Positions 2,835 through 62,004 are shown, counted from the stretch's first letter. The stretch: DNA of 64,000 bases from Nannocystis pusilla (GCF_026626665.1 NZ_JAPNKE010000002.1:1293204-1357203); one strand, 5' to 3'. Numbers and translations are program-made. The notes: generated by a model from the sequence alone, not told the origin.

Positions 2835-2902
2835 TGACATGTCCATCGAGAAATGTCCATATGGTAATGTCGAATGAGACATGTCTTATCGTACATGTCT
2901 GA
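2835..2902. repeat. Array of 5 ATGTCY units at 15/14/14/14-bp spacing, including palindromes AGACATGTCT and TACATGT
   Basis: ATGTCC at 2838 and 2853, ATGTCG at 2867, ATGTCT at 2881 and 2895. Member of the 14-bp periodic RGACATGTCY family. Lies in the divergent intergenic region. Confidence 0.8.
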
Positions 2903-3054
2903 GAGAGCACGTCGGGTCCGGGCGAGCCCATTAAAGGAGGCCGTGCGACGCCTGGCGCGAAATGCGCAATCGGCCGCTGACATGTACGAAAGTGCAGGTC
3001 GGATCGATATCGCGCGCCTGCTCTGGAAGGCCGCCGGGGGCCGGAAATTCTCGC

Positions 3055-3083
3055 TTGACGGCTTACTACACCTGTAGTACTAC
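3055..3083 (+). promoter_or_regulatory. Putative blaI promoter (TTGACG-17-TACTAC) with an overlapping BlaI/CopY-type operator TACTACAccTGTAGTA at 3064-3079
   Basis: The inverted repeat contains TACAnnTGTA, the consensus box of the BlaI/MecI/CopY family. It overlaps the -10 element immediately upstream of the repressor gene. Confidence 0.6.
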
Positions 3084-3094
3084 GCTTGTCGTTC

Positions 3095-3495
3095 ATGGGT
3101 GAGGTACTCCAGCTCAGCGATCTGCAGCTCGGCCTGCTGCGGATCTTGTGGGACCGCGGGGAGGCGACGGCGCTCGAGGTGCATGCGGCTCTGGTCGAGC
3201 AAGACCGGGGCTCGCGCCGACGACGGTGTCGACGATGCTGTCGCGATTGGAGAAGAAGGGGACCCTCGCGCACCGCACGGAGGGCCGGCAGTTCATCTAC
3301 CGGGCGCTCGTGTGCGAGGGGGACGTGAGGCGCTCGATGCTGGGCAGGCTCACCGATTACTTCTTCGGCGGGGACGTGGCGGCGCTGGTCAGCCACCTCG
3401 TCGAAGGCCGCTGCGTCGAACCGGACGACGTCGCGCGCCTGCAACAACTAGTGGCCGAACGATCCGGCGGAGCTGAGGAACACGACGATGTTTGA
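3095..3495 (+). CDS. blaI: BlaI/MecI/CopY family transcriptional repressor; frameshifted near 3205 by one G missing in a GGGG run
   Basis: N-terminus MGEVLQLSDLQLGLLRILWDRGEATALEVHAALVEQDRG in the 3086 frame. Continuation LAPTTVSTMLSRLEKKGTLAHRTEGRQFIYRALV in the 3148 frame. Inserting one G restores a contiguous BlaI-like protein. Confidence 0.75.
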
Positions 3496-5659
3496 TCTTG
3501 CGATCGATCCTGCCGGCCTCGCCGGTCTCGCGGCGCCTGCCGCTCACACGACGGTGAGCTGGCTCGGCACCTACTTTGTCCACTCGACGGTGCTCATCGG
3601 CGGCGTGTGGATGTTCAGCCGCTTCCTGCCGCTCGACGCGCTGACCCGCAGCTTGCTGTGGAAGACATCGCTGGTCGGCGGGCTGTTCACGGCGACGCTG
3701 CAGACGGGGCTCGGCGTCGAACCGATGTTCGGCCGCGTCACCGTGGCGGCCAGCAGCCCTGACCTGGGCGCGCCGACGACGGCTCCGGCGCCGCCGCCGG
3801 TGGTCGAGGAGGAGCCGGCGACGCTGCTGGTGCCGTTCACCCGCGCGTGCGTCGGTTGCGAGTCGCACGTGGTGGTCGTCCGCGACGACGACTTCACGGC
3901 AGTGTTCGCCTCGCCGCCGCTGTTCGTCGACGCGCCGGGCTGGGCGGTCGCGCCGACGCCGGCGCCGATGGCCGCGCCGACGACCGCGGCCGCGCCGATG
4001 CAGATCGCGACCGCGGGTCCGGTCGGGGGCGTGAGCGCGGCGGTGTGGGCGTTCGCGGGGCTGTTCGTGTTCGGCGCCGCGGCCTCGCTCGGCCGGCTGG
4101 GGATGACGTTCTCTCGCCTGCGCCGCGGGCTCCGCGGTCGTCGCCTGCTCGGCTCGGGCTCGCTGCGCGAGCGGCTGACGCGGCTGCTGGCCCACGCGCG
4201 GCTGCCCGGCCACAGCGTCACGCTGAGCGAGTCGACGGACATCAGCTCGCCGGTCGCCCTCACCGGCCGCGAGATCGTGGTGCCGGAGCAGGTGCGTGAG
4301 CTGGCGCCGCGGCAGCAGGAGGCGATGCTGGCCCACGAGCTGGCCCACGTGCTGCGCCGCGATCCGGCGTGGCAGGTGCTGGCGGCGTTCGTCGAGTCGC
4401 TGCTGTTCTTTCAGCCGCTCAATCGGGTGGCCCGCCGCGGGATGCAGGAGGCGGCGGAGGAGCTGTGCGACGACTGGGCGGTCCGTCACACCGGCTCGGA
4501 GGTGCACCTGGCGCGTTGCCTGGCCGAGGTCGCGGCGTGGCCTGGTCATCGGGACATGTCGGCGTTCGCCAGCCCGATGGCGGGCCACGCCTCGCAGCTG
4601 GTGCGCCGGGTGAAGCGGCTGCTCGACGTGCAGCTGCGCGACCGCGGGCTGTGGGCGCGGCGCTGGCGGGTGGCGCTCGGCGCAGCGCTGCTGGCGATGG
4701 TGACGTTCGGCGCGCCCGGGCTGTCGATCGCGGCCGAGGCGCAAGGTGGGCCGGAGTGGCCGACGTTGCCCGACAACGGGCCGGCGCCGCAGCCGACGCT
4801 GTCGTTCGTCCACGTGCCCGAGACGCCGATCGTGGCCGTGCGGACGCCGCACGACCACGCGGTGCACGGGCACGAGATCATCGTCGTCGAGCATGCGCAG
4901 GATCTGACCCGCAAGCAGAAACGCTTGCTGCGCCGGGCCGAGCGGCACGCCCGCAAGGCGGCCAAGCTGCGCGCCAAGAGCGGGCTGTACGCGGTGCCGG
5001 CGACCCACGCGGTGTACGTGCCGGTGTCGCACATGACGCCGCCGACGCCGCCGACGCCGCCGACGCCGCCGACGCCGCCGACGCCGCCGAGCTTCAAGGT
5101 CGTGGTCGCGCACGACCACGACGACTGCGACGACGACGATCACGACGTGATGGTCCGGCCGATCGCCGTGCCGCACGTGGCGGTCCACCCGCACGTGTTC
5201 CACGTGCCGGACATCGACGAGGAGGCGATCGCGGCGCAGGCCGAGGCGATCGCGGCCCAGGTCGAAGCCCAGCTCGAGGGCCTCGACGAGCAGATCGAGC
5301 GCGAGCTGGAGAGCATCGACTTCGACAAGATCGCGGCCGACGTGCAGCGCGGGGTCCAGGCGTCGCTCCGCGGCGTCGAGAGGGCGCGCGAGCAGGCGGA
5401 CCGGGCGCGCGAGCGGGCGGACCGGGCGCGTGAGCAGGGCGATCGGGCGCGCGAGCAGGGTGAGCGGGCGCGCGAGCGGGCCGAGCGGGCGCGCGAGCGG
5501 GCCGAGCGGCAGGCCGAGAAAGGCCGCCGCAAGGCCGACACCTCGCGGGCCGCAGCTGCGGTCCGCAGCGCGGTCGACGAGGCCCTGCGCGACGGGGTGA
5601 TCGACGCCGAGGAGCAGCGCAAGATCAGCGAGGCGGCCCGCCAGGCCCGCGTGAAGTGA
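3488..5659 (+). CDS. blaR1: BlaR1/MecR1-like M56 family membrane metalloprotease (anti-repressor) with an atypical C-terminal domain
   Basis: Four TM segments. HELAHV zincin motif in an M56 context. Overlaps the blaI stop. The C-terminus has TPP x5, His/Asp-rich blocks and a coiled-coil RAREQAD x6 instead of a penicillin-binding domain. Confidence 0.8.
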   Translation: MFDLAIDPAGLAGLAAPAAHTTVSWLGTYFVHSTVLIGGVWMFSRFLPLDALTRSLLWKTSLVGGLFTATLQTGLGVEPMFGRVTVAASSPDLGAPTTAPAPPPVVEEEPATLLVPFTRACVGCESHVVVVRDDDFTAVFASPPLFVDAPGWAVAPTPAPMAAPTTAAAPMQIATAGPVGGVSAAVWAFAGLFVFGAAASLGRLGMTFSRLRRGLRGRRLLGSGSLRERLTRLLAHARLPGHSVTLSESTDISSPVALTGREIVVPEQVRELAPRQQEAMLAHELAHVLRRDPAWQVLAAFVESLLFFQPLNRVARRGMQEAAEELCDDWAVRHTGSEVHLARCLAEVAAWPGHRDMSAFASPMAGHASQLVRRVKRLLDVQLRDRGLWARRWRVALGAALLAMVTFGAPGLSIAAEAQGGPEWPTLPDNGPAPQPTLSFVHVPETPIVAVRTPHDHAVHGHEIIVVEHAQDLTRKQKRLLRRAERHARKAAKLRAKSGLYAVPATHAVYVPVSHMTPPTPPTPPTPPTPPTPPSFKVVVAHDHDDCDDDDHDVMVRPIAVPHVAVHPHVFHVPDIDEEAIAAQAEAIAAQVEAQLEGLDEQIERELESIDFDKIAADVQRGVQASLRGVERAREQADRARERADRAREQGDRAREQGERARERAERARERAERQAEKGRRKADTSRAAAAVRSAVDEALRDGVIDAEEQRKISEAARQARVK
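5036..5520 (+). repeat. In-frame coding tandem repeats inside blaR1: 9-bp x5 encoding TPP, and 21-bp x6 encoding RAREQAD
   Basis: acgccgccg x5 at 5036-5085. gaccgggcgcgcgagcaggcg-like units at about 5395-5520. Confidence 0.8.
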
Positions 5660-5671
5660 GGCGGTAGTTTC

Positions 5672-5751
5672 GCAGATGTCCGAGGGGACATGCTCGTGCG
5701 AGCATGTCCTCTTTTTCATGGCCCTACGGGCATGTCCTTTCGGGCATGTCC
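5672..5751. repeat. Six-unit 14-bp periodic array of RGACATGTCY palindromes
   Basis: Palindrome centres at 5676.5, 5690.5, 5704.5, 5718.5 (degenerate), 5732.5 and 5746.5. Units are cagATGTCC, GGACATGCTC, GAGCATGTCC, GGGCATGTCC x2. Confidence 0.85.
5686..5717 (+). terminator. Intrinsic terminator of blaR1: GGACATGCTCG-tg-CGAGCATGTCC followed by TCTTTTTC
   Basis: 11-bp perfect stem, short loop, T5 run, 27 nt after the blaR1 stop. The stem is built from array units. Confidence 0.75.
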
Positions 5752-5842
5752 GGCAGGCCGGGCGCGCTCGCGGCCTGCGGGGCGCGCGGCCGGAGATGCG
5801 CGGCCGCGCGGGTCGGCGCGGAGACCGAGCGCGGTCGCGCGG

Positions 5843-6397
5843 TCAGGGGGCTGCCCAGGTGCAGGGGTCGGGCGTGGTCTCGCCGCCGGCGGTGGGATCG
5901 GCGGGCAAGTCGAGGGAGACGACGATGCGGTCCTGCAGCTTGATCGCGCCGGCCAGCGCCTTGTACGGTGCGATGCCCCATTGCGAGGGCACGAGCGTGA
6001 AGTCGGCGCGCAGGCGGTCGCCCTCGACGCGGACCGGGGCGCGCACCGGGGCTGTCCTTCCGAGCATGACCAATCGGCCATCCAGGACGCCGCCGGGGGT
6101 GAGCGCGCCGGTGAAGCTGACCTCCGGGTGCTGCGCGGTCAGCAGGATCTCGTCGGTGATGTTGCGCTGGATCTTGGCCTTGTCGCCGGCGCCGAGGCCG
6201 TCGACGTCGACGCGCCCGTCCTTGCCGACGACGCCGTCGACCCTCAAGGTGGCCGGCCAGAAGCGACCGCTGAGCGCGGTGCCATCGCGGCGGATCTCGA
6301 AGCGACCCAGCGACAGCCGGAGATCGTGGGCGAGCCGCGCGAGCAGGCCGTCCTTGAAAGTGAAGACGTGGATCTTGCCTTTGTCCTGCGTGGTCAT
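5843..6397 (-). CDS. YceI-like family protein
   Basis: MTTQDKGKIHVFTFKDGLLARLAHDLRL...FTLVPSQWGIAPYKALAGAIKLQDRIVVSLDL. ATG at 6395-6397 (complement). Upstream part of the ORF is Arg-rich junk. Confidence 0.8.
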   Translation of the reverse strand: MTTQDKGKIHVFTFKDGLLARLAHDLRLSLGRFEIRRDGTALSGRFWPATLRVDGVVGKDGRVDVDGLGAGDKAKIQRNITDEILLTAQHPEVSFTGALTPGGVLDGRLVMLGRTAPVRAPVRVEGDRLRADFTLVPSQWGIAPYKALAGAIKLQDRIVVSLDLPADPTAGGETTPDPCTWAAP

Positions 6398-9592: not shown

Positions 9593-9695
9593 AAGATGTC
9601 CTGAAAGACATGCTTGCATCGACAATGACAACAGGGCCGCGCGTGCCGCGGCCAGCCTGCGCATGCTCGTATGAACATGTCTTGAAGGCCATGCG
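9593..9695. repeat. Two 3-unit 14-bp periodic CATG-centred arrays
   Basis: Centres at 9596.5, 9610.5, 9625.5 and at 9663.5, 9677.5, 9691.5. Includes gATGTCCtgaaaGACATgc and gaACATGTCTtg. Confidence 0.7.
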
Positions 9696-9715
9696 ATGCC
9701 TCCGAGGGCGGAGGC

Positions 9716-10447: not shown

Positions 10448-12637
10448 TCACTGCACCCCTGCGGTCAGCGTGTAGTTTCCGGCGCCGGAGTACGACGCTA
10501 CCGTATACGTGTAGTAGCCCGCGGTGCCGACGTAGGAGATCGACTCGCTCGACGTCGCGGTCTCGGACTTGGCGACCTGGGCCCACGCGCTGCCGTTCCA
10601 CTTGAGGAGGTACAGGTCGAAGTCCGTCCCGTTCGGCCCGGTCAGGCAGGCCTTGTGCGTCTTGGTCGCGGTCGTCTGATAGTACGAGCCGTTCGGCTGG
10701 GCCTGCTGGGCCCCCGCGCCGGACAGGGTGCCCTGGTATTGCGTGCCCGTGCAGCTCCCGCCGCCGCCACCGCCACCGCCGCTGCCCGGATCGCCAGGCA
10801 CGCCGACGGCCGTCCACGCCGCGTGGACCGCAGCGACCTCCGCCGAGGCGGCCCCGTGGATCGCCGTGGCCGCCTGGGCCGTCGCGTTGCGGGCGTCCTG
10901 GAAGGTCGCGGTGGACTGCAGATAGGTCACCAGGGCGTCGTAGAAGATCTTGCTCGCCTTGGTGATCCCGATCCCCGTGACGTTGTTGGCCGTCTTGCCG
11001 CGCGGGTGGACCCCGCCGGTGACCAGCAGCTTGAACGCCAGGTTGGCGATGCCCGAGTTCAGGTGCACGCCGCCGTTGTCCTGACTGCCCTGGTAGCGGG
11101 TCGGCCAATAGTCGTACGACTGCCCGTCCTTGATCGGGTCGTCCATGTAGCGCATCGCGTCGCCGGAGGTGGTCGGCGTCCACGACGCCTCGGCCAGCTT
11201 CCACGTGGCCGCCGAGACCACGCCGCCGGCCACGTGGGCCTGCACCGAGGCCGCCATGACGTCGGAGAAGGCCTCGTTGAGCGCGCCGGACTGGTTCTGG
11301 TAGACGAGGTTCGCCTCGTACTGGGTGACCGCGTGGGTCAGCTCGTGGGCGACGATGTCGAGGTCGCGCGCGAGCGACGAGAAGTACTGCCCGCTGCCGT
11401 CGCCGTAGACCATCTGCTGGCCGTTCCAGAACGCGTTGTCGTAGCCGACGCTGAAGTGCACCGACGAGTGGATCGTCGCGCCGGCGCCGTTGAACGAGTC
11501 GCGGCCGAACCGATCCTTGTAGAAGTTGTAGGTCGTGCCCGCGTAGGTGAAGGCGTCCTTGGCCGAGAGGTCGGCCGAGCTGCCCGGATTGGCGATCTCG
11601 GAGCCGGGCAGGCTCTCGCCCTTCTTGGCGTCGTAGACCTTGCGCACCAGCGCCCGGTGGTGCTGCGGGTGGCGCGTCACGAGCTCGCCGGTCCGGGCGT
11701 CGGCGAACACGAAGTCGCGCTCGGGCCCGTCGGCGCTGGTGTAGGTCACCTCGGCCATCCACGCGAGCGCCACCGAGTCCTCGGTGACCACATAGACGAG
11801 GTCGGGTGCGTCGGTGCTGGCCGCGTCGGCCGGGAGCCCGCTCAGCACCTTCGCCAGCGCCGCCTCGCCCTCGACCTCCGGCTCGCTCGCCAGGTCCTCG
11901 CCGGCGATGAACCGCCCGCTCACCGCGTGTACGCGCCCGCTGACCCCGTCGGCGTGAACCGTCAGCTCGCCGCCGACGACCGGCAGGTCGTGCAGGTACT
12001 GCTGGAACTTCACGTGGACCTGGCCAAGGTCGTCGCTCTTCACGCGCAGCGGCTCGAGGTCGGTCGCCGCGTGCATGCGGAACACCGGCGCGACATCCTG
12101 CAGGAACGTCTGCGCCGCCGCCCGCGGCTCGCCTTTCGGCAGGAACCCGAGGTCGCCCGCGACCAGCGACGGCACCCCGTCGCCCGCCGTCACGACCTGA
12201 TCGATCCGCGGCAGCCGCGACAGCGCCGCCCCCTGCGTCACCATCAGCGTGGTCGGCCGCCTCTTCGCCGCGTCGGCGACCATCTCGGCGTCGACCAGGA
12301 AGCTGTCACCCAGCTCGAGCCGCGCCGGGATCACGCCCCATGCCTCGCCGCGGCGCGCCAGCAGGTCCTGCAGCAGCGAGCGGCGCCCGTCCTCACCGAC
12401 CACGACGACCCTGGAGAAGTCGATCGGCCCGGCCGCGAACGAGAACCGCACCGCCTCCACCCCCAGGTCGAGCTCGAGCACGCCTGCCGCTCCGAGCCCC
12501 TCGAGATCCTCGGCGGTGACGATGCGCTCCGCCGTGGCGACATCATCTCCCGCTGCACCACCTCCTTCGTAGCAGGCCGACAGCAGGAAACACGAGACGA
12601 TCGACGAGACGACTCCAGCGGTACGAAGCATGCACAT
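10448..12637 (-). CDS. Secreted M4 (thermolysin/vibriolysin-like) zinc metalloprotease with a C-terminal PPC-like domain
   Basis: VAHELTHAV (HExxH), GALNEAFSD, signal peptide, 729 aa. The antisense ORF 10340..12769 is Arg-rich junk. Confidence 0.9.
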   Translation of the reverse strand: MCMLRTAGVVSSIVSCFLLSACYEGGGAAGDDVATAERIVTAEDLEGLGAAGVLELDLGVEAVRFSFAAGPIDFSRVVVVGEDGRRSLLQDLLARRGEAWGVIPARLELGDSFLVDAEMVADAAKRRPTTLMVTQGAALSRLPRIDQVVTAGDGVPSLVAGDLGFLPKGEPRAAAQTFLQDVAPVFRMHAATDLEPLRVKSDDLGQVHVKFQQYLHDLPVVGGELTVHADGVSGRVHAVSGRFIAGEDLASEPEVEGEAALAKVLSGLPADAASTDAPDLVYVVTEDSVALAWMAEVTYTSADGPERDFVFADARTGELVTRHPQHHRALVRKVYDAKKGESLPGSEIANPGSSADLSAKDAFTYAGTTYNFYKDRFGRDSFNGAGATIHSSVHFSVGYDNAFWNGQQMVYGDGSGQYFSSLARDLDIVAHELTHAVTQYEANLVYQNQSGALNEAFSDVMAASVQAHVAGGVVSAATWKLAEASWTPTTSGDAMRYMDDPIKDGQSYDYWPTRYQGSQDNGGVHLNSGIANLAFKLLVTGGVHPRGKTANNVTGIGITKASKIFYDALVTYLQSTATFQDARNATAQAATAIHGAASAEVAAVHAAWTAVGVPGDPGSGGGGGGGGSCTGTQYQGTLSGAGAQQAQPNGSYYQTTATKTHKACLTGPNGTDFDLYLLKWNGSAWAQVAKSETATSSESISYVGTAGYYTYTVASYSGAGNYTLTAGVQ

Positions 12638-12639: not shown

Positions 12640-13948
12640 CTCCTCCAGCGGGAATTCAGGGCCCATGCGAAATGGCCCTGTCCCGTGGAACATGTCCGAA
12701 GCACCCTTGCCCAGAGGCAAGGACGGGGTCAGCACGACCCCTATGACAGCAGCACCATACCAGAGGTGACCTGTATCCACAATCTCCCGCGCCGACCACG
12801 ACCCGGTGCAGGTCGCCCCGCGGGGCGACACGTCTCGGAGCGCGTGGCGGCCCGCTGCGAGCCAAATCTTCTGCGAAGGCGCCGGCCCCCGAGACGGCGC
12901 GCGCGCTCGGCCCCTCGCAGGGCCGGTGTGCGCTTGGCCGGGTGCTCGGCGAATGCGCAGGCCGGCAGTGGCCGTCGCGGGTCCGGGAGGTGCTCGGCGA
13001 ATGTGGGGCGGGGCCAGCACGGGCACGAACGGTCGGGGCTGCCGACCCCAGATGCGGGCTGAAGGCCGTAGGAAGCGGGCTCGGCCGTCGATCCTTCACG
13101 TCGATGCGCGTCGATACTTCGCCTCGCTCGCGCTCCACCTTTCTTCTCGGAGTGCTCGATGCGCGCGTACGACCCGAACGATCGGGCTATGCAGCCCGAT
13201 GAACGGGCACGGGCCGTCTGCGGGGAGCGAGAACTGCTTCGATTCGGCGGCGCGTTCGCCCTCGCTGTGCGACCGCCCCGGGAACGAGAGCGGCTCCACG
13301 TGGCTGTACCAGACATGCCCGAGAGCCCGTTGTGGCGCACCCAATGGGCGATGGCCTTCACCTCGACGGAACACGCGTCAATCTGCACGTCGTGGGGCGC
13401 GGCGAAGACGGTGGCGACTTGGATCGTCTCGCACGAGCGCGATCCGGGCATCCATAGTCGGGAGGATGATCGGGTCGGCGAGCTGCAGCGAATCGCGTGA
13501 CCGATTGCGGGCGTACCTGCTTTTCGTCCGCGGCGGATCGGCGACCTGAGTCTCCCACGAATCGATTCGACAGGGGGTCGACCGATAGCTTCGATTCGCG
13601 TCACGCCGCCGATCCCAGTAAGCCATCGCAGACGCGATCGTAGTTCGCGCGGGCGCGAACCTGCTCGCGGCCTCGCGGGCTGGCACAGTGGGCGGGCGGT
13701 GGCTCCGATCGGCGGCGAACTCGTACACCGCGCCGCGGCCGCAGCGCCGTCGGGTGATCTTGACATACAGGCGGGTCTCGTGGACAACCGACTCCGATGA
13801 TCGGAGGGCCGACCTTGCCATGAGGCAGGCGCTGTGACGCTCCTGCGTCATGGCACGGGAGTCTCTCCACATATGAGTACGGGGATTCGTCGACAGGCGG
13901 CCCCCCGCGGCGAGAGCTCGCAATCGCGGTCGCGCAAGGGAGGACCAG
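12640..13948. other. 1.3-kb stretch with no convincing CDS and slightly lower GC
   Basis: Direct repeat GGTGCTCGGCGAATG at about 12945 and 12990. Palindrome CGAATCGATTCG at about 13565, with TTCGATTCG repeats. Palindrome at 13818-13853. One short minus-frame peptide (ETIQVATVFAAPHDVQIDACSVEVKAIAHWVRHNGLSGMSG) looks protein-like. Confidence 0.4.
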
Positions 13949-16177: not shown

Positions 16178-19100
16178 ATGGTGCTTGACTCGGATGTCTC
16201 CGCCGGCCGCTCGGGCAGGTTGCACGTGCTCGCCGGTGGCGGCGAGATGGGCGCGCGCATGCGGGAGATCGACTGGGCGAAGACGCCGCTCGGCCCCGTC
16301 GACGCCTGGCCGCAGAGCCTCAAGACCTGCGTGCGAATCATCCTGACCTCGCTCCAGCCGATGTTCGTCTGGTGGGGCGACGAGCTCATCAACCTGTACA
16401 ACGACGCCTACAAGTCGATCGTCGGCGGCAAGCACCCGGAGGCGCTCGGACAGCCCGCCTCCGTCGTGTGGCGCGAGATCTGGGATCAGGTCGGGCCGCG
16501 CGCCGCGTCGGCGATGCGCCTCAACGAGGGCACGTACGACGAGGCGCTGCTGCTGATCATGGAGCGCTACGGCTACCCGGAGGAGACGTACTACACGTTC
16601 TCCTACAGCCCGGTGCCGAACGACCAGGGCGGGACCGGCGGGATCATCTGCGCCAACACCGACGACACGCAGCGGATCATCGGTGAGCGCCAGCTCGCCC
16701 TGCTGCGCGAGCTGGCCGCCCGCACGACCGAGGCGCGCACGTGGGAAGAGGTGTGCGTCCGCGGCGCGGCGTCGCTGCAGACCAACCCGAAGGACCTGCC
16801 GTTCGCGCTGATCTACATCGCCGACGCCGACCGGCGCCGCGTGCAGCTGGCGGGGGCAGCCGGGCTCCCGCGCGGCCACGCCGGCGCGCCGGAGGTCGTG
16901 TCGACGCTCGAGGACTCGGTGTGGCCGTTCGCCGAGGCGCTGCACGGGCACGAGCGCGTCATCGAGATACCGCCTGTCCTCGGGGACATCCCCACCGGCG
17001 CCTGGCCGCGACCGCCGACGCACGCCGTCGCCCTGCCGATCGCCCCGTCGGGGGAGACCGGTCGCGCCGGGGTCTTGCTCGTCGGGCTGAGCCCGTTCCG
17101 CAAGCTCGACGACAACTACCGCGGCTTCTTGCAGCTGGTCGCCGGGCAGCTCGCGGCCAGCATCGCCAACGCGCAGGCCTACGAGGAGGAGCGGCGGCGG
17201 GCCGAGGCGCTCGCCGAGCTCGATCGCGCCAAGACGATCTTCTTCAGCAACGTCAGCCACGAGTTTCGCACGCCGCTGACGCTGATGCTCGGCCCGCTCG
17301 AGGACGCGCTCTCGGCGGCGAAGCGCCGGCTCGAGGGCGCCGACCTCGACACTGCGTACCGCAACGCCGTCCGCCTGCTCAAGCTCGTCAACGTGCTGCT
17401 CGACTTCTCGCGCATCGAGGCCGGGCGGATCCAGGCGTCGTACGAGCCGATCGATCTGTCGGCCCTGACGACCGACCTGGCGAGCGCGTTCCGCTCGGCC
17501 GTCGAGCGCGCCGGTCTCGTCTTCGACGTCGACTGTCCGCCGCTCTCCGAGCCGATCCACGTCGACCACGACATGTGGGAGAAGATCGTGCTCAACCTGC
17601 TGTCGAACGCGCTCAAGTTCACGTTCGAGGGCACGATCGCGGTCGCGCTGCGCCTGCGCGGCGACCAGGTCGAGCTGACCGTCCGCGACACCGGCACCGG
17701 CATCCCGGAGCACGAGCTGCCGCACCTGTTCCGGCGCTTTCATCGGGTCCAGGGCGCGCGCTCACGGACCCACGAGGGCTCGGGGATCGGGCTCGCGCTG
17801 GTCCACGAGCTCGTGCGCCTGCACGAAGGGACGATCCACGTCACCAGCGAGGTCGGCGTCGGCACGACGTTCACGGTGGCGATCCCACGCGGCCACGCGC
17901 ACCTGCCCGCGGAAAAGATCAACCTCCGCCGCACCCAGGTGTCGTCGGCCACCGGCGCGGCGCCGTACGTGCAGGAGGCGCTGCGCTGGCTGGCCGGCCC
18001 GCAGCAAGGCGACGACGACCTCGCCGCGGACGCGCTGGGGGCCGCCTCCGATCCGGCGCTCGAAGCCGGACCGCCGGCGCGGATCCTGCTCGCCGACGAC
18101 AACGCCGACATGCGCGACTACGTCGGCCGCGTGCTGCAGCAGCGGTGGATCGTCGACGCCGTCCCCGACGGCGCCGTCGCGCTCGCGGCGGCGCTGGAGC
18201 GCCCGCCCGACCTCGTCTTGACCGACGTCATGATGCCGAACCTCGACGGCTTCGGCCTGCTCCGCGCGCTGCGCGAGGACCCGCGCACGCGGCGGATCCC
18301 GGTGCTGATGCTGTCGGCGCGCGCAGGCGAGGAGTCGCGCGTCGAGGGCCTCGAGGCCGGCGCCGACGACTACCTCGTCAAGCCGTTCTCCGCGCGCGAG
18401 CTGGTCGCCCGCGTCGCCACTCACCTGCAGATCGCCCGCCTGCGCGCCGCCGCGGAGCGCGAGCGCGAGAAGCTGTACGACCTGTTCATGCAGGCGCCGG
18501 TGCCGATCGCCGTGTTCGTCGGTCGGGAGCACCGCTACGTGGTCGCCAACCCGCCGTACTGCGAGATGCTCGGGCGCCCGGAGCTGGTCGGCCAGACCGT
18601 GCGCGAGGCGTTCCCGGAGATCGGCGAGCACGCCATGATCACGTCGCTCGACACCGTGATGGCGACCGGTCGACCCGTCCACGTGTTCGAGCTCAACATC
18701 CCGGTCATGCGCCACGGCGTCATCCGGGACGCTTACTTCAACTACGTCGCGCAGCCGATCCGCGACCCGAGCGACGCGGTCACCGGGGCCATGGTCGTCG
18801 CCTTCGAGGTCACCGAGCAGGTGCTCGCGCGTCATCGCGTCGAGCGGCTCTCCGAGGAGCTGGCGCTGTCGAACAAGGAGCTCGACCAGTTCGCCTACGT
18901 CGCCTCGCACGACCTCAAGGCGCCGCTGCGGGGGATCGCCAGCCTGTCGCAGTGGATCGAGGAGGCGCTCGCCGACAAGATCGACGAGGAGTCGCAGCGG
19001 CACATGCACCTGCTGCGCAGGCGCGTGCTCCGGCTCGAGACGCTGATCGACGGGATCCTCCATTACTCGCGCGCCGGCCGCATGCGCGTCGACGCGGTCA

Positions 19101-19539
19101 CCGTCGACACCGGACAGTTGCTGGCCGAGGTGGTCGAACTGTTGAGCCCGCCGCCGTCCGCCCGGATCACGATCGCCCCCGGCATGCCGATGTTGACCGC
19201 CGAGCGCGTCCCGCTCCAGCAGGTGTTCCAGAACCTGATCAGCAACGCCCTGAAGCACGCGCGCCGCGACGATGTCCACATCGCAGTCTCGTGGCGCGAC
19301 GCGGGCCAGTCGTACGAATTCTCGTTCCGTGATGATGGGCCGGGAATGCGCCTGAATTCCACGAAAGGATTTGGGGCCTGTTCCAGACGCTCGAGTCGCG
19401 CGACAAGTTCGAGGGCGCGGGCATCGGGCTGTCGGTGGTCAAGAAGATCGTCGAGAGCCGCGGAGGCAGCGTCGCCCTCGAGTCGCAAGCCGGCGCGGGC
19501 GCGACGTTCGTCGTGCGCTGGCCCAAGCGCCCCGGCTGA
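16178..19539 (+). CDS. Double hybrid sensor histidine kinase (PAS-GAF-HisKA-HATPase-REC-PAS-HisKA-HATPase). Frameshift near 19334 from one G missing in GGGG.
   Basis: H-boxes SNVSHEFRTPL and YVASHDLKAPL. Receiver RILLADDNADMRDY...DLVLTDVMMPNLDG...DYLVKPF. The final HATPase continues in another frame as EFHERIWGLFQTLESRDKFEGAGIGLSVVKKIVESRGGSVALESQAGAGATFVVRWPKRPG*. Confidence 0.85.
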
Positions 19540-19625
19540 GAGCGGTCGCGGCGCGCCTTGCTTTGTCGGTCGCGCCGAAGCTGACCTTCCAGCCTCCTCC
19601 GCGACCGCCCCGAACACGAGCCCCG

Positions 19626-39176: not shown

Positions 39177-39207
39177 GGTTCGCTGGCGTCGGACGAGCGG
39201 CCAAAAA

Positions 39208-45503: not shown

Positions 45504-45752
45504 TTATTGTAAGGACATGTCCCTTGATGCATGTCATGCGAATCCCGCCGTGCTCGGCGTCGTGAGCGGAGTGCCGGTGGTGAAAGTCCCGAGGGACAGG
45601 ACCGAACGAGCAGGCCATGCGGGCGCCCCGCGGAGCCCGCCGCGCGGCCACGCCGGTTTTTTGTCCTGAAGGACATCGTAGAGTTCATGTCACCGGCTGT
45701 CGGCGCGGCGGCGGACTTGCTGCTCTTTCGGTCATGCCCGATGGGGCATGTC
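45504..45752. repeat. Three short 14-bp periodic arrays (GGACATGTCC, TGTCCtgaaGGACAT, CATGcccgatggggCATGTCC) in a convergent intergenic region
   Basis: Centres at 45507.5/45521.5, 45661.5/45675.5 and 45734.5/45748.5. Confidence 0.7.
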
Positions 45753-45766
45753 CCGAAGGTCACCCT

Positions 45767-46647: not shown

Positions 46648-46663
46648 ATGTCCGAAAGGACAT
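46648..46663. repeat. Perfect ATGTCC-gaaa-GGACAT unit (two 14-bp-phased half-sites), upstream of MOSC and divergent from the Cache kinase
   Basis: 6-bp arms and a GAAA tetraloop-like spacer. Confidence 0.7.
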
Positions 46664-52013: not shown

Positions 52014-52020
52014 ACCCGAG

Positions 52021-52098
52021 GACATGTCCCGAGGGGAAGGTCCGAAAGGGCATGGCCTCGGCGGCATGGCGCGAGGAACATGCCCTGAACGCCATGAG
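52021..52098. repeat. Six-unit 14-bp periodic array (GGACATGTCC, degenerate, GGGCATGGCC, GGCATGGCG, AACATGCCC, GCCATGAGA)
   Basis: Centres at 52024.5, 52038.5 (degenerate), 52052.5, 52066.5, 52080.5 and 52094.5. Lies between convergent genes. Confidence 0.8.
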
Positions 52099-52100
52099 AC

Positions 52101-54506: not shown

Positions 54507-54520
<14 letters not shown>

Positions 54521-56895
54521 GCGCCGGACCGCGCGGGCGCTGCGGACCCTGCTGCCGGTCTTGCTGTCGGCTTCGGCCTGCGCCCCGCGCGGGCCGACGA
54601 CCGCGGCGCCGGGTGCCCCGAAGGACATGTCCTCGGAGACATCCGGTGCGGCGGCGGTGGCGGCCTGCGACAAGCAGGCGAGCGCGGTCCAGGACGGGCT
54701 GGTGCGCCTGGCGGATCGCTACCTGTGGGAGGAGATCGAGCTGCTCGTCCAGGCTCACGCGGCGACCCGCGGCCGGCCCGACGCGGCTCGCTGCGCCGAG
54801 GCGACCCGCGCGGCGCTGACGACCGTGACGCTGCGCTGGGCCGAGCAGGGGGCCGAGTCGGGCGGGTCGCAGAGCCACGCGCTGGCCCGCCAGGCCTACG
54901 CGGCGCTGCGCCAGCACTTCCCCGCCGAGGCCGAGGCGCCGCTGCTGCACCACGCGATGGGCAAGCTCGAGTGGGCCCGCGCCGAGCGGCTGACGCTCGA
55001 GATCGGCGAGCGCACCCTGACCGACGAGGCGCTGCGCGAGGCCCACGCCCACCACCGCGCCGCCCTGGCCGGCGGGCTGCCGACCGAGCAGGCCGCCCGT
55101 TCGGCCCGCGCCCAGCTCGACGCGGTCCGCCGCGTGCGCGAGGGAGAGCCTGCTCGATGGGTCATGTCTGAACAGACATGTCTGCCGGATCCGCGGGGCC
55201 GCTGCATCGACCCGGTCCCGCGCGTCGCCCCCGGCGAGCTGACCGCCGGCGACCGCGAGTGGCTGGCCGCCTACGACGCCTTCCTCGCCGAGCCCGGGCT
55301 GCAGGGCACGCCCGAGGCCGGGCAGGTCGCGGTCGAGCGGGCCGAATTGCTGATGCGATACCGCCGCTGGGACGAGGCCGAGACGAGCCTGCGCGCCGTC
55401 ACCGGGCCGGCGCGCGAGCAGGCGCGGGTGCTGCTGGTCGGCCTGCTGCTGGCGCGCTGGATGGAGGCCGCCAGCGCCGGCGATCGCTCGGCCGCCCGCG
55501 TCGCCCTGGTCACCGCGGCTGTCGAGGTCGAGGCCGCCGGCGGGCCGCAGGTGGCCCAGGTGGCGGCGCTGCGGCGCGCGGCGCTGTGGGCCCAGGCCGA
55601 GGAGTCGGAGGCGGTCGGCGACGACGCCCGCTGCGGCGCGGCCTTCGAGGGGCTCTACGCCGACCTCGGCGCCGACATCCACGCGGCGGCCGAGGCGGCC
55701 GACGGCGCCGGTCGCTGCTACGAGCGCGCCGGCCTGACGCAGAAGGCGATCGACTGGCTCGAGCGCATGGCCGACGTCCACCGCGAGGACCCGCGGGCCC
55801 CCGACGCGGTGCTGCGGCTGGCCCGCTTGCACGAGCGGATCTTGAACGACGAGCAGGCCCGCGACCGCTACCTCGATCTGGTGGCCCGCGCCCCGCGGCA
55901 CCGCGCCGCCGCGACCGCCCGCCGCCGCTCGCTGATCTTGAGCCTGCGCGCCGGGACATTGCCCGAAGGACAGCTGGACGCGCTGATCCGCGGCCGCCCG
56001 GAGGAGCGCACGCTGGCGGCGGCGATCCAGTTCCGCGCGGTGTTCCGCCCCGGCGTCACGCCCGAGGCGGCCGAGAAGTACATCGAGCGGTTCGGCAAGG
56101 AGGGCGGGCCGCGGCGGCTGGCGATCGCCCACGCGCGCGCGGCCGAGGCGTGGCTGCGCGCGTCCTGCCCGGTCCCCGGGGCCGAGGGCCTGTGCGTCGA
56201 ATTCGGCCGCGACCGCACGCCTGCGCGGGTGGTCGCGCGCCTGCCAGCCGCACGCCAAGGGCCGCGAGCACCTCGACCGCGCGCAGAAGTTGTTGCCCGA
56301 GGTCAGCGGCGGCGAGGTCGACAAGCTCGAGGCGCCGATCGCCGTCGACGCCGACGAGGCGCGCGTCGCCAGCCGCCAGGTCGCGCTGCTGCAGGGCGAC
56401 CTCGACGCCGAGTCGGCGCTCACCAGCCAGCCGCCGAAGAGCCTCGACCCGGCCCGCTCGCGCGCGTGGCTCGAGGTCCGCAAGGCCGAGGTCGAGCGCA
56501 TGAGCGCGGTCTACGAGACCGCCACCGCGGGCGGGACCGGCGGCCGCGATCAGTCGGCGGCGCTGGTCGAGACCCGCAAGGCGCAGGTGTACGAGTCCGA
56601 CCTGGCGCTGCTCGACGAGGTGGGCGCCGCCGTCGAGGCCGCCGGCGACGCCGGCCTGGCCCAGCAGATGCGCGAGCTGGCGGCCCAGCGCCGCGAGGCG
56701 GTGTTCACCGCGTACGCCCGCTGCCTCGACCACGTGGCCGCGTGGGGCCACGACGCCGGGGGCCAGAGCGCGCTGTGCCGCGCCGGCCTCGGCCGCCTGG
56801 TCGGTCGCTACGAGGAGCCGCTGGAGTACGCGCCCGACCACGACGGGCGGGTGATCGTCGGCGCGGCGGCCCGAGCGTCGGGCCCTCCGCGGTGA
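54507..56895 (+). CDS. Secreted TPR-like repeat protein co-transcribed with the kinase. Frameshift (one extra C) near 56245.
   Basis: MARRERRTARALRTLLPVLLSASAC signal. Helical-repeat body in the 54507 frame up to ...ARVVAR, then ...HAKGREHLDRAQKLLPEVSGGEVDKLEAPIAVDADEARV... in the 56290 frame to the stop at 56895. Confidence 0.6.
54624..54645 (+). repeat. Intragenic 2-unit array (GGACATGTCC + GAGACATCC, 14-bp phased) in the signal-peptide coding region of the TPR gene
   Basis: Centres at 54627.5 and 54641.5. Encodes KDMSSETS. Confidence 0.6.
55161..55182 (+). repeat. Intragenic perfect palindrome CATGTCTGaaCAGACATG (two 14-bp phased units) inside the TPR gene
   Basis: Centres at 55164.5 and 55178.5. 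Encodes VMSEQTCL. Confidence 0.6.
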
Positions 56896-56937
56896 GGCTG
56901 AGCCGCCGCGGGCGACGCGCTGAGGCGAGCATTTACG

Positions 56938-57016
56938 GACATGCTCGAACGATCATGTCTCCAAGAGCATGTCGGATAGAGACTGCCTGAAAGAGCATGT
57001 CCCGTGAGACATGCCC
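56938..57016. repeat. Six-unit 14-bp periodic array (GGACATGCTC, ATCATGTCTC, GAGCATGTCG, degenerate, GAGCATGTCC, AGACATGCCC)
   Basis: Centres at 56941.5, 56955.5, 56969.5, 56983.5 (degenerate), 56997.5 and 57011.5. Lies between convergent TPR genes. Confidence 0.85.
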
Positions 57017-57028
57017 GAAGTGCCAGCC

Positions 57029-58574: not shown

Positions 58575-59966
58575 ATGTACCGTATGGACATGCAGCACGC
58601 GCACGCGGTCTTGGTCCTCGCGCTCGCGCTCACTGCCGCGTGCCTCTCCAGCTACTATCAGCCGCCTGCCGAGGGCGCGACGGCCGACGAGGGGCTCACG
58701 ACGACGAGCACGAGCAGCACGAGCACCGGCAGCCCCGAGGTTGCGACGGGACCGAAGTTCGACATTCCGTACCCCGATCTCCCCGATCCCGCGTGCGAGC
58801 AGCAGCCGCTCGCCGCCGATTGCGAGCCCTCGTGCGTCTCCGGCTGGACCGCCGCCGCCGAGGTGTGCGACGTCGAACCGTTCACCGCGCCGGCGCCGTT
58901 CTACCCGCTGCTGGTCGATTGCTCGTGCAGTGACAGCGTCGACGTCGTCCTCGTCGACCTGGATCACGACGGCTTCGACGACATCGTCAGCGCCTGCTCC
59001 TACGAGTCGCGCGCAGTGGTCCACTACGGCGGCAGCCAGCGGCCGCTGGCGTGCCCTGTCGAGCACGCCGTCCTCTCGTCCCCCTCGTCGGTCGCCGTCG
59101 CCGACTTCGACATGGACGGGCATCTCGACATCCTCGCGGGGGGCGACGACTTCGGCGGGGGAGGGGCGCTCTTCAGTCTGCTTCGCGGCCGCGGCGGACG
59201 CAGCTTCGGTCCGCAAGAGCTCGTACTCGCTCCGGAGCTTCCCTCGACCTCTCGTCTCACGGCCGCCGACCTCGACGCCGACGGCGACCCCGACCTGATC
59301 GCGCACGACTCTGGTATCGCGCAGGTGCTCCTGGGAGACGGGCTCGGCGGCTTCGTGCCGGGCCAGACGATCACCTTGCCCCCGACTTGCCGCATCGACT
59401 CGTCGGACGACCTCGACGGTGACGCCCTCGTCGACCTGGTCCGGGCGTGTTCCGAGGACGGCGGCGTCCAGTTTCATCGCGGCGACGGCCACGGCGGTTT
59501 CGCCGATCCGGCGCCGCTCGTCGCCAGCGACCAGTGGATCGAGGCGCTGACCATCGCCGACCTCGACGGCGACCTGAGACGCGACCTCGTCCTGCTCCGC
59601 GAGACCGACATCGCTATCGCCATCGCCGTCGCCCCCGGCGAATACGGCCCGCTCGAGCCGATCGGCCCGGCGTTCGTCGGTCAAGCGATCGCCGCCGTCG
59701 ACCTCGACGGCGAGGACGGCCTGCTCGAGATCCTGGTCCACGGCACCGACTACAACAACCCCGAGCATCAGACCGCCCGTACGCGCCTGCTCACCGGCGA
59801 CCCCCAGCAGGGCTTCACTCTGACCGCCACGCTCGTCCACGCCCAGCAAGTGCTGTCGCCGCACTTCGGCGACTTCAACGGCGACGGCCGCCTCGACCTC
59901 GTGTTCGGCCACTATCTCTCGGCGTACAACGACGGCGGCATCTACTACCTGGAGAGCGCGCCATGA
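58575..59966 (+). CDS. FG-GAP/VCBS repeat lipoprotein (integrin-alpha-like beta-propeller)
   Basis: MYRMDMQHAHAVLVLALALTAAC. Repeated xDxDGDGxxDL motifs (DFDMDGHLDIL, ADLDADGDPDLI, ADLDGDLRRDLVLL, GDFNGDGRLDLVF). Confidence 0.75.
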   Translation: MYRMDMQHAHAVLVLALALTAACLSSYYQPPAEGATADEGLTTTSTSSTSTGSPEVATGPKFDIPYPDLPDPACEQQPLAADCEPSCVSGWTAAAEVCDVEPFTAPAPFYPLLVDCSCSDSVDVVLVDLDHDGFDDIVSACSYESRAVVHYGGSQRPLACPVEHAVLSSPSSVAVADFDMDGHLDILAGGDDFGGGGALFSLLRGRGGRSFGPQELVLAPELPSTSRLTAADLDADGDPDLIAHDSGIAQVLLGDGLGGFVPGQTITLPPTCRIDSSDDLDGDALVDLVRACSEDGGVQFHRGDGHGGFADPAPLVASDQWIEALTIADLDGDLRRDLVLLRETDIAIAIAVAPGEYGPLEPIGPAFVGQAIAAVDLDGEDGLLEILVHGTDYNNPEHQTARTRLLTGDPQQGFTLTATLVHAQQVLSPHFGDFNGDGRLDLVFGHYLSAYNDGGIYYLESAP

Positions 59967-61132
59967 AGCGCCGCGGCGTCCTCGCCCTCGCGCTCGTCGC
60001 CTGCACACCCGCGCCGCTCGCGGGCGACTCCGACGGCTCCACGTCGACCGCCTTCGGGCCGGTCGAGCCGGGCACGAGCAGCGCCGCCAGCACGACGACC
60101 GACCCTCTCGACGACGCACCCGCCGAGATCGACCTCGGCGTCGTCGCCGACGGCTTCGCGTTGCTCGACCTCGACGAGGACGGGCACATCGACCTCGTCA
60201 CCAGCGCTTACACCACCGCGGTCCAGCTGCTTCGCGGTCGTGGCGACGGCAGCTTCGACGCGCCGATCGGCCTCGGTGACGGCTTCGACTCGTATGCGAG
60301 CGCGGTCGTCGGCGGGGACTTCGACGGCGACGGCGCCCGCGACCTCGCGGTCCTTTGGAGCGCACACCTCGTCCTGCTCCGCGATCCGCTGCACGGGCCG
60401 CACGAGGCGCTCCACGCCCCCTCCGCCGGTGTCGCCGCCGCGCGCGGCGACGCCGACGCCGACGGCCTCGACGACCTGTTCTTGGCCGGCGGGAACGTAC
60501 TTGACCGCCTCCATGGAGATGCCAGCGGGGTCTTCGATCTGCGGCCGCCGCTGGGTCTGGGGGGCGAGCCGGTCGACATCGTCGCCGCCGACCTCGACGC
60601 TGACGGCGCCGTTGACATCGTCACCGCCAACGTCGGCACCGACGACCTCAGCCTGCTCCGCGGCGACGGTCTCGGCGGCTTTCTCCCGCAGACGCTGCTG
60701 CCCGTCGGCGACCAGCCGTTCGCCGTCGCCGTCGCCGACCTCGACGTCGATGGCACCCTCGACCTCGTGGTCTTGCACGTCGGCGGGCTCGTCACGCTGC
60801 GCGGCCTCGGCGGCAGCGCCTTCGCTGCGCCTCACGGCATCGCGCTTCCCGAGCACTACAGCCGGCACGAAGCGAGCTTTGCCGTGTGCGAGCTCGACGG
60901 CGACGAGCGCCCCGAGATCGTCGTGACGCGCGACTTCAACGGGTACGGCTGGCTCACCCGGTTCGAGGTCGCCGAAGACACCCGGGTCATCGAGCCGAAG
61001 GTCCTCCGGAGCGGCCGAGGGGTGGGGCGGATCGTCTGCGCCGACCTCGACGGCGACGATCGCGACGACCTCGTCTTCGACGCCTTCCGCCCCGGCGGCT
61101 CCACGCTTCACCTCCTGAGGTCGTCGCCATGA
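59963..61132 (+). CDS. Second FG-GAP/VCBS repeat lipoprotein (ATGA overlap with the first)
   Basis: MKRRGVLALALVAC. LDLDEDGHIDLV, GDFDGDGARDLAV, ADLDADGAVDIV, ADLDVDGTLDLVV, ADLDGDDRDDLVF. Confidence 0.75.
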   Translation: MKRRGVLALALVACTPAPLAGDSDGSTSTAFGPVEPGTSSAASTTTDPLDDAPAEIDLGVVADGFALLDLDEDGHIDLVTSAYTTAVQLLRGRGDGSFDAPIGLGDGFDSYASAVVGGDFDGDGARDLAVLWSAHLVLLRDPLHGPHEALHAPSAGVAAARGDADADGLDDLFLAGGNVLDRLHGDASGVFDLRPPLGLGGEPVDIVAADLDADGAVDIVTANVGTDDLSLLRGDGLGGFLPQTLLPVGDQPFAVAVADLDVDGTLDLVVLHVGGLVTLRGLGGSAFAAPHGIALPEHYSRHEASFAVCELDGDERPEIVVTRDFNGYGWLTRFEVAEDTRVIEPKVLRSGRGVGRIVCADLDGDDRDDLVFDAFRPGGSTLHLLRSSP

Positions 61133-61337
61133 ACGAACGCGCCAGCGCCGAGTCGTCGCGGAGGCCCGTACGGATATGACAATGAACTTTGGGACATGTA
61201 CCGTCATTCTTGGCGATTCGCCGCTCCCCGCGCCGGCGGCGGTCCCGCCGTGAGCAGAGGCCGATCTACGGCGAATGTCGACACCCTGAATAGGCGGATC
61301 CGACGCGCGTCCGTGCGCACCGAGGTTTTTAAAAGAA

Positions 61338-61835
61338 ATGCCCAAGCTCATCCTGACCCTGTTGGCGCTCCTCTTCAGCGTGACCGGTTGCAGCTTCACG
61401 CTCTCGTCGCACGGCGGTTGGGGGTCGGAGGGGCCCGCGCCGCGGATGGCCGGCCGCGGCTACGGCTGGGCCTCCGCGGGCGACCCGGGCCTGCACGGCC
61501 GCGGCAAGCCGGCCCGCCGCGTCGACGCCAGCGAGCGCCCCGCGACGAAGCCGGCCGGTGCGGCGCCGCAGAAGGCGAAGCAGCCGGCGATCGCCTGGGC
61601 GGGCGAGGTGCCGAAGAAAGCAAAGAAGCCGGCGATCACGTGGGCGGGCGAGGTGCCGAAGAAAGCGAAGAAGCCGGCGATCACGTGGGCGGGCGAGGCG
61701 CCGAAGAAGGCGAAGCAGCCGGCGATCACGTGGGCCGGGAAGGTGCCGCCGAAGCGGACGAAGCAGCCGAGAAAGCCCGCCGACGAGCGGCCGGCGATCA
61801 CGTGGGCCGGCACGGTCCCGCCGCGCCCGCAATGA
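61338..61835 (+). CDS. Lipoprotein with five 15-aa tandem repeats (PKKAKKPAITWAGEV)
   Basis: MPKLILTLLALLFSVTGC lipobox. 45-bp DNA repeats at about 61591-61800. Lower GC than neighbours. Followed by a strong intrinsic terminator. Confidence 0.7.
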   Translation: MPKLILTLLALLFSVTGCSFTLSSHGGWGSEGPAPRMAGRGYGWASAGDPGLHGRGKPARRVDASERPATKPAGAAPQKAKQPAIAWAGEVPKKAKKPAITWAGEVPKKAKKPAITWAGEAPKKAKQPAITWAGKVPPKRTKQPRKPADERPAITWAGTVPPRPQ

Positions 61836-61882
61836 GGTCGAGCAGGCGCGGCGCCCGAGACGCACGCCGAACCTGCTCACAC

Positions 61883-61914
61883 GGCCATGTCCATGAGGAC
61901 ATGGCCGTTTTTTC
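61883..61914 (+). terminator. Intrinsic terminator GGCCATGTCC-atga-GGACATGGCC + GTTTTTT
   Basis: Perfect 10-bp stem, 4-nt loop, T6 run, 48 nt after the stop at 61835. The stem is an ATGTCC-N4-GGACAT unit of the 14-bp family. A further GGACATGTCC lies at 61957-61966. Confidence 0.8.
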
Positions 61915-62004
61915 GTGCGCCAGCGAAGGCGCCTCGCGCTCGCCGCCTGGCCGAACGGACATGTCCTCGCGGACCGCCGCGGCGCGGCGCTCGCCGGCTC
62001 CGCG

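Follow-up and report, generated by a model that had tools for sequence, protein, structure and literature searches.

Tandem 14-nt hairpin modules joined at CATG lie at gene 3′ ends in Nannocystis and close relatives

In enterobacteria, repetitive extragenic palindromic (REP) elements and bacterial interspersed mosaic elements (BIMEs) have a role in transcription termination or pausing and in 3′-end protection. The elements of Escherichia coli, especially BIME-2, are extragenic, high-copy, hairpin-forming imperfect palindromes, which are found in clusters of variable number and alternating orientation past stop codons and between convergent genes, with some copies serving as terminators or 3′-end protectors. 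In this study, we describe a family of periodic arrays that resembles them in these respects and that is present at about 13 loci within 64,000 nt of the genome of Nannocystis pusilla (Myxococcota; GC content 70–78%), a stretch referred to as the window in the following. While the E. coli REP unit comprises about 35–40 nt, and units of the REP family in general about 20–40 nt with a GTAG-type 5′ head, the Nannocystis unit is only 14 nt long and is repeated with zero linker in a strict lattice; its consensus lacks GTAG and carries an invariant CATG junction, and the family is confined to Nannocystis and close relatives.

Further points of comparison are provided by REPINs and by ordinary intrinsic terminators. 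A REPIN pairs two REPs, each about 20 nt long and 18–112 bp apart, and is defined by an adjacent RAYT gene (PMC3337134, PMC3116915). The arrays have vertical inheritance, persistence within a lineage and higher-order clusters in common with REPIN/RAYT systems, but their halves measure 5–7 nt around a 4-nt spacer and they form contiguous tandem modules rather than a spaced doublet. Like intrinsic terminators, they provide GC-rich hairpins just past stop codons, symmetric for convergent transcripts, and two arrays are followed by a T run; ordinary terminators, however, have individual stems, variable loops and usually one hairpin, whereas the Nannocystis arrays show a common core, a fixed period and mostly no U tract.

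The palindrome RGACATGTCY occurs six times in the window against 0.17 expected, a count attained by none of 100 shuffled sequences, and the exact 10-mer GGACATGTCC is present in exactly four copies; allowing up to one mismatch, 20 matches stand against 2.06 expected. Among 198 CATG sites, 18, 9, 7, 5 and 3 pairs are spaced by 14, 28, 42, 56 and 70 bp, respectively, and every remaining spacing up to 70 bp holds 0–2 pairs (one at 13 bp, none at 15 bp). A looser detector, for which 7 or more of the 10 positions of GGRCATGYCC had to match and CATG was not required, returned 42 phased 14-bp pairs and 19 at the multiple of 28 bp, compared with 1–13 pairs at other spacings of 10–30 bp and 2–10 in shuffled sequences. 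Shuffles and counts at alternative spacings rule out a chance origin and confirm that the periodic CATG repeat is real and far above chance. The 10-mer excess and the 14-bp phasing reported in a preliminary description of this DNA are hence upheld, with shuffled controls far below the observed counts, and the three perfect ATGTCC-N4-GGACAT hairpins that it placed at 5676, 46648 and 61887 are all correct. Its phased arrays stand as well, but its figure of 15 or more loci does not, as direct reading in 14-bp frames gives about 13. Array regions share units only, with high-scoring segment pairs of about 48 bp or less; neither a longer shared element nor a target duplication was found among them, which rules out a longer mobile element copied intact.

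The anatomy of the repeat was analyzed in the window pooled with 33 Nannocystis loci (354.6 kb, 96 CATG chains, 338 units). Each unit, or module, is an inverted repeat of 14 nt (TGYCC-N4-GGRCA). Modules abut gaplessly with CATG at each junction, and a run of n modules resembles a 14-bp lattice of GGRCATGYCC palindromes (unit consensus wnGGRCATGYCCnn). In a half-site spacing analysis of the same 354.6 kb that did not assume CATG, TGTCC-N4-GGACA was found in 63 copies against 0.45 expected per spacing and GGACA-N0-TGTCC in 29 copies, and all further enriched spacings fall on the 14-bp lattice. Just outside a chain, the half-unit faces inward at 37% of 5′ ends and 35% of 3′ ends and outward at 5% and 14%, respectively, at a background of 3%. 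This bias at the chain ends indicates that arrays are made of whole numbers of TGYCC-N4-GGRCA modules and that CATG is the inter-module junction.

The two halves of a module also vary together. At the three variable stem positions, complementarity across the spacer amounts to 1.57 pairs versus 1.41 expected (p = 0.0006, 5000 permutations), 39 modules show perfect 3/3 pairing versus 26.4 expected, and T:A at the second stem position has an odds ratio of 2.8 across the spacer (p = 0.004); paired double variants such as TTC/GAA, CTC/GAG and CTTTT/AAAAG are directly visible. Complementarity within one palindrome lies below expectation (p = 0.013), and within a unit, the bases on the two sides of CATG show a negative correlation (odds ratio 0.43, p = 0.0002). 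The A..C and G..T unit types around CATG are mutual reverse complements and alternate along the arrays (GT to AC transitions: 27 versus 12.9 expected; GT to GT: 9 versus 17.1). This alternation gives rise to a 28-bp superperiod, and Tandem Repeats Finder likewise reports a period of 28. Nannocystis spacers are AT-rich in the centre. The hairpin across unit junctions, given in the preliminary description as a second way of viewing the palindromes, therefore turns out to be the more fundamental view, based on the 63 versus 29 copies, the whole-module ends and the cross-spacer co-variation.

Next, we related the arrays to genes predicted by a caller based on GC at third codon positions, which was checked against the pipeline annotations of two loci (L001 from Nannocystis sp. 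ILAH1, and L002); according to these annotations, 10 of 11 arrays are located at 3′ ends. In the Nannocystis sample, 49 of the 96 chains lie between convergent genes, 28 in tandem and three in divergent intergenic regions, while 12 fall in called genes and four at locus edges. Array density thus reaches 5.3 per kb in convergent, 1.0 in tandem and 0.2 in divergent intergenic DNA, compared to 0.04 in coding DNA. Of the 53 kb of intergenic DNA, convergent regions account for only 9.3 kb (binomial test: convergent excess, p = 4e-18; divergent deficit, p = 4e-8), and many convergent gaps are nearly filled by an array, for example 52014–52100. In tandem regions, the median distance is 35 bp from the upstream stop to the array and 209 bp from the array end to the next start codon. 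The same preference was seen for arrays of at least three units in metagenomic relatives: 47 are convergent (p = 2e-27 for the excess), seven tandem and none divergent, with six in called genes and eight where one flanking gene was called; all seven tandem arrays begin 0–34 bp past the upstream stop. Arrays are therefore tied to gene 3′ ends, above all to those of convergent pairs. The earlier statement that most arrays sit between convergent gene ends holds for five intergenic regions in the window and is borne out overwhelmingly by the larger sample.

Comparison with related genomes revealed how the arrays evolve. Locus L001 of Nannocystis sp. ILAH1 is syntenic with 42–63 kb of the window at 94.8% nucleotide identity, and in this part every array is found at the matching site with an equal unit number and no indels; no gains or losses were seen among about six arrays. 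The two sequences do differ in gene content: L001 carries a Lipase_3 gene and a gene for 362 amino acids (1154–2422 and 18945–20033) that are both not in the window, and two genes at 58584–61132 of the window are absent from the corresponding place in ILAH1. In an alignment of 15 units, differences affect 16% of positions in the 10-mer core and 38% in the 4-nt spacer (Fisher p = 0.0008), with CATG changed at 2/60 positions. In the more distant pairs N. punicea/N. radixulma and N. radixulma/N. exedens, where flanking DNA is 83–89% identical, the CATG lattice stays in register for 4–5 units while the unit flanks are extensively changed, sometimes into new complementary pairs. Purifying selection maintains CATG and the register. 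In metagenomic relatives, adjacent units often match each other completely, spacers included, with a periodicity of 14 or 28 bp, which implies that arrays grow by tandem duplication. Five metagenomic loci from uncultured relatives (L125, L134, L163, L170 and L187) combine GC-rich spacers with runs of identical 14-bp or alternating 28-bp units, which points to recent tandem duplication; Nannocystis spacers, in contrast, are AT-rich and have diverged. Arrays would thus expand by duplication of 14 or 28 bp, and their spacers would diverge afterwards.

A scan for CATG(N10)x5 across the genomes of 185,579 species yielded at least 113 stretches. Among the matches listed, degenerate arrays with a unit identity of 0.29–0.55 outside CATG occur in Nannocystis only (RBIL2, bainbridge, radixulma, exedens and punicea); this low inter-unit identity speaks against a plain micro- or minisatellite. 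The other taxa among these matches contain plain 7- or 14-bp microsatellites with a unit identity of 0.53–1.0, mostly 0.7 or more. A number of cyanobacterial loci (L017, L022, L038, L058, L070, L072 and L101) from Nostoc-, Oscillatoria- and Microcoleus-type genomes carry arrays of the heptamer TGGGGCA, which are plain tandem repeats and unrelated. Using the identity of the orthologue of a DUF3089 protein encoded next to an array in the window as a ruler of distance, array content declines with distance from the window: the loci of ILAH1 (91%) and N. punicea (89%) contain many long arrays, the locus at 83% one 2-unit array directly past the same stop codon, the locus at 73% three 2-unit arrays in 18 kb, and those at 67%, 60% and 57%, including Nannocystaceae bacterium ST9, none.

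In metagenomes, 71 stretches match a strict pattern of three units; 62 of these stretches have a Nannocystis-like GC content of at least 68%. Several of the 71 have genes in common with Nannocystis at 64–84% amino-acid identity and hence represent relatives rather than Nannocystis itself. Viral contigs gave no match to this pattern, leaving a phage origin unsupported. Three-unit arrays were also present in metagenomic contigs of lower GC content (L124 at 3502–3533, L143, L148 and L150), with CATGTCCAAAAGGACATGTCCGAAAGGACATG in a contig of 62% GC and ACCATGCCC-N4-GGGCATGCCC-N4-GGGCATGGT in others, and related modules may therefore exist beyond the Nannocystaceae. A known RNA family could be excluded, as the whole window gave no Rfam match at the gathering threshold and contains no tRNA or tmRNA genes. 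In the literature on Nannocystis repeats and on REP/RAYT in myxobacteria, we found no description of a CATG array family, and the 10-mer itself led to p53 papers only. We conclude that Nannocystis and its close relatives among the Nannocystaceae possess a family of CATG hairpin arrays that has not been described before; scaled up roughly from the window, each genome would contain on the order of a thousand of them or more.

At the RNA level, four of five arrays tested fold far better than shuffled sequences on both strands (z from −2.75 to −7.0). The array at 5670–5753 has z = −7.0/−5.0, and the array at 2833–2916 does not stand out (−0.3/−1.5). Two arrays contain a hairpin and T run of the intrinsic-terminator type, in line with the preliminary description: the hairpin 5682–5709 is followed by a T run and the hairpin 61881–61908 by TTTTTT. 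Otherwise, 40 kb of the window show no excess of consensus terminators over chance (5 versus 3.4 and 2 versus 4.8 expected), and canonical terminators appear to be almost lacking in this genome. We also folded the array-free convergent gaps. One of them, 21537–21602, contains two unique and very stable GC-rich hairpins (−59.8 kcal/mol, z = −6); apart from the missing T tract, they resemble a pair of ordinary terminators. The remaining gaps show no special structure. The idea of a CsrA sponge built on GGA motifs was dropped, because G takes the R position after GG in about 39% of units, and GGA is part of the stem and not of the loop.

At the left edge of the window, a 49-bp tandem duplication (9–109, 2.1 copies, 88% identical) contains two 14-bp-spaced units per copy and thereby forms two 2-unit arrays, 33–56 and 82–105, directly 3′ of the stop of the minus-strand gene 103–849; as 49 bp correspond to 3.5 units, the copies are mutually out of phase. 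The six units at 2833–2916 are atypical. Located in a divergent gap, they precede a BlaI/BlaR1-like gene pair (3226–5659: a BlaI/MecI-type repressor gene with Penicillinase_R, then a BlaR1-like M56 peptidase gene), and they show the right half ATGTCY as a direct repeat with AT-rich spacers and poor hairpin potential. A role as BlaI operator was considered and dropped, since the array does not match the TACA-N2-TGTA geometry of such operators and is a member of the general family. In the M56 peptidase gene, the part for the C-terminus contains 21/63-bp repeats (5377–5509) with a match to Alanine_zipper.

Six units at 5670–5753 separate the convergent genes 3554–5659 (+) and 5843–6397 (−); the hairpin with the T run is terminator-like on the plus strand, and a second hairpin spans 5726–5749. 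Two mutually out-of-phase 3-unit arrays (9593–9630 and 9657–9698) share a long intergenic region, and 2-unit arrays lie at 12672–12699, upstream of the minus-strand M4 peptidase gene 10448–12481, and at 25756–25783, adjoining the 5′ end of the minus-strand gene 23991–25643. From 26000 to 45000, 19 kb are array-free despite four convergent gaps (28783–29205, 33186–33465, 36493–36507 and 39177–39207) and an unchanged GC content. The convergent gap between an S1/P1 nuclease gene (+) and a MOSC gene (−) contains several modules at 45511–45755, namely two units at 45511–45538, a degenerate module at 45583–45604, the single hairpin TGTCC-TGAA-GGACA at 45662–45675 and two units at 45728–45755, the latter conserved in ILAH1 and N. 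punicea. A single module, ATGTCC-GAAA-GGACAT, is present in a divergent intergenic region at 46648–46663.

Five units (52018–52087) fill the 87-bp convergent gap 52014–52100 between the DUF3089 gene (+) and a GNAT gene (−); ILAH1 and N. punicea have orthologous arrays and locus L117 a 2-unit array. The convergent gap 56896–57028 holds six units (56935–57018), and the ILAH1 orthologue also has six, with conserved cores and diverged spacers. In the last convergent gap with arrays, three units (61867–61908) include the 12-bp-stem hairpin 61881–61908, which together with TTTTTT constitutes a canonical terminator for gene 61338–61835, and a single GGACATGTCC follows at 61957–61966. This gene, an open reading frame (ORF) without Pfam domain, contains a 45-bp tandem repeat (61565–61748, 4.1 copies, 89% identical).

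Two sites had been described as lying inside a TPR coding sequence. Their location within ORF 54507–56895 is correct, but both are short and near the chance background, and the TPR label goes back to one sub-threshold TPR_6 match. The first is a single perfect GGACATGTCC at 54621–54632, about 100 bp past the stop of a kinase gene; the second comprises 2–3 phased units at 55144–55185, which lie within the chance background of the looser detector and are probably due to chance or a relic, and no array was detected at the corresponding place in the relative locus L149. At the same junction as 54621, between the stop of a Ser/Thr kinase gene and the start of a TPR-like lipoprotein gene, L149 harbours a 6-unit array (10634–10707), and one reading frame spans this entire array into the signal peptide. 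The protein encoded by ORF 54507–56895 has a lipoprotein-type N-terminus and is 95–97% identical to a 789-aa protein of ILAH1. Relative to this orthologue, the reading frame changes at 56224–56246 with the same identity on either side, which reflects either a frameshift/pseudogene or a sequencing error.

What could such arrays do? Our tentative preference, which we hold a little short of even confidence, is that they constitute a lineage-specific, REP/BIME-like extragenic family, serving as a bidirectional 3′-end hairpin lattice with a putative sequence-specific reader of CATG. The arrays probably mark or stop transcript ends. Both transcripts of a convergent pair would run into the array, which would then form the 3′ end of each mRNA. 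Because the array design is its own reverse complement, identical hairpins, adjacent or nested, are predicted for both strands, and these hairpins could act in both directions by termination or pausing and by 3′-end protection. The near-invariant CATG and the fixed phase suggest a sequence-specific partner reading the core. This partner may be a protein that acts on the hairpin or the DNA duplex, or else the factor responsible for the spread of the repeat. Of the two readings offered in the preliminary description, a REP/BIME-like element and a cooperative binding array for a dimeric protein, possibly CRP/FNR-like, the former is the better one: extragenic location, 3′-end position, hairpins, high copy number and alternation all agree with it. 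Membership of the REP/REPIN families in the strict sense is not established, given the missing GTAG-type head and the 14-nt units, and with no RAYT gene seen in 354 kb.

Several observations weigh against this interpretation. No T enrichment was found past the arrays in 34 oriented cases, tandem-region arrays are not followed by a T tract, and most arrays lack one. Unit types show no strand bias in tandem regions, and G.U mismatches do not significantly outnumber A.C mismatches (46 versus 33, p = 0.18), leaving no significant sense-strand signature. GNRA or UNCG tetraloops, or their reverse complements, fit 42 of 243 spacers, which is no clear excess in a count made without a background test. 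The effect of co-variation is modest and could stem from hairpin-templated correction at the DNA level. Moreover, only 5 of the 12 convergent gaps in the window contain arrays while seven are array-free, and the six units at 2833–2916 have little hairpin potential and lie in a promoter-type region. Finally, a function of the hairpin alone does not explain the near-fixation of CATG or the indel-free abutment of modules. These two features are a pointer to a sequence-specific reader and make a cooperative protein lattice the main rival.

This serious rival, which we regard as rather unlikely, assumes a dimeric, sequence-specific protein that binds the 14-bp 5-4-5 palindromes or the CATG 10-mers cooperatively on double-stranded DNA and acts at convergent ends as a roadblock or insulator, as a topoisomerase/gyrase loading site or as a nucleoid boundary. 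It would account for the two changes in 60 CATG positions and the indel-free phase next to spacers changed at 38%, for the strict period (18 pairs at 14 bp versus one at 13 and none at 15), for the strand symmetry without sense bias and for the lattice retained at 2833–2916 without hairpin potential. With binding centred on the spacer, neighbouring sites would share the CATG between them, and this double use would explain its extreme conservation. There are precedents, as BIME-2 of E. coli binds gyrase and BIME-1 binds IHF, and MetJ/omega-type operator arrays similarly consist of tandem abutting sites that are read cooperatively, although those are few and located at promoters. The compensatory TTC/GAA, CTC/GAG and CTTTT/AAAAG pairs would, however, be unexpected for independent half-site recognition, sites spaced by 14 bp overlap sterically for typical dimers, and no candidate protein gene recurs beside the arrays in 354 kb. 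It is also conceivable, but unlikely, that a dedicated lineage-specific protein or RNA–protein track assembles cooperatively every 14 bp where convergent genes meet and forms a genome-wide, factor-dependent bidirectional insulator or terminator, a system that might also act via methylation or topology control at CATG; we know of no bacterial system like a protein-read insulator track on a genome-wide scale. Operator arrays of CRP/FNR-type or other transcription factors controlling adjacent promoters are hardly credible as an explanation of the family. The dominant TGTCC-N4-GGACA does match the 14-bp 5-4-5 geometry of the FNR box, which confirms this part of the CRP/FNR proposal, and a few sites are in 5′ regions (2833–2916, 12672, 25756 and 46648). 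The location does not agree: divergent regions hold 3 of 80 (Nannocystis) and 0 of 54 (metagenomic) intergenic arrays, tandem-region arrays hug the upstream stop and not the downstream start, and FNR-type operators are few and at promoters, as opposed to the thousand or more arrays per genome extrapolated here for 3′ ends.

It appears quite improbable that the arrays are a selfish or neutral repeat without host function, be it a REPIN-like element mobilized by a RAYT-type or other enzyme or a slippage minisatellite. Such a repeat would be expected to accumulate between convergent genes, because no promoters are damaged there, and the preference for these gaps is typical of tolerated insertions; the identical neighbouring units in relatives indicate ongoing tandem duplication, many convergent gaps are array-free, and density varies by lineage, from dense in Nannocystis over sparse at 73–83% orthologue identity to none in the three loci at 57–67%. 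On the other hand, orthologous arrays keep their position and number of units across species, as illustrated by the lack of gains and losses relative to ILAH1, and selective substitution (core 16% versus spacer 38%) with near-fixed CATG and a preserved phase is not neutral decay. No longer shared element or target duplication was seen, nor did six-frame translations reveal a RAYT-like motif or clustering of array-flanking proteins a recurrent gene, in searches of low power that covered 354 kb, about 3% of one genome. The arrays may well be of mobile origin, even though a purely selfish or neutral nature is disfavoured. Highly improbable, lastly, is a DNA uptake or self-recognition signal that accumulates by biased uptake and recombination, comparable to the DNA uptake sequence (DUS) of Neisseria or the uptake signal sequence (USS) of Pasteurellaceae such as Haemophilus. 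Those signals are likewise short, lineage-specific motifs at about one per kb, found in either orientation and also in inverted pairs at 3′ ends, sometimes as terminators, and the better conservation of the core than of its flanks would also fit. DUS and USS are, however, also common inside genes and unphased, whereas the Nannocystis arrays are nearly confined to intergenic DNA (0.04 arrays per kb in coding versus 5.3 in convergent intergenic DNA), and a strict 14-bp lattice of up to six units is not a feature of uptake signals.

Considered as a REP/BIME-like 3′-end lattice, the arrays bear on two aspects of gene organization. In very GC-rich bacteria, termination without canonical terminators is poorly understood, as is the avoidance of interference between convergent genes, and a 14-nt module at convergent gene ends under purifying selection offers a simple sequence handle on both questions. 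With its gapless lattice of mini-hairpins and its invariant junction, the family is a structurally distinct addition to the few REP-like families, and it offers a practical means of recognizing Nannocystaceae DNA in metagenomes. Should there be a specific reader protein, it could furthermore provide a compact orthogonal insulator or terminator part.

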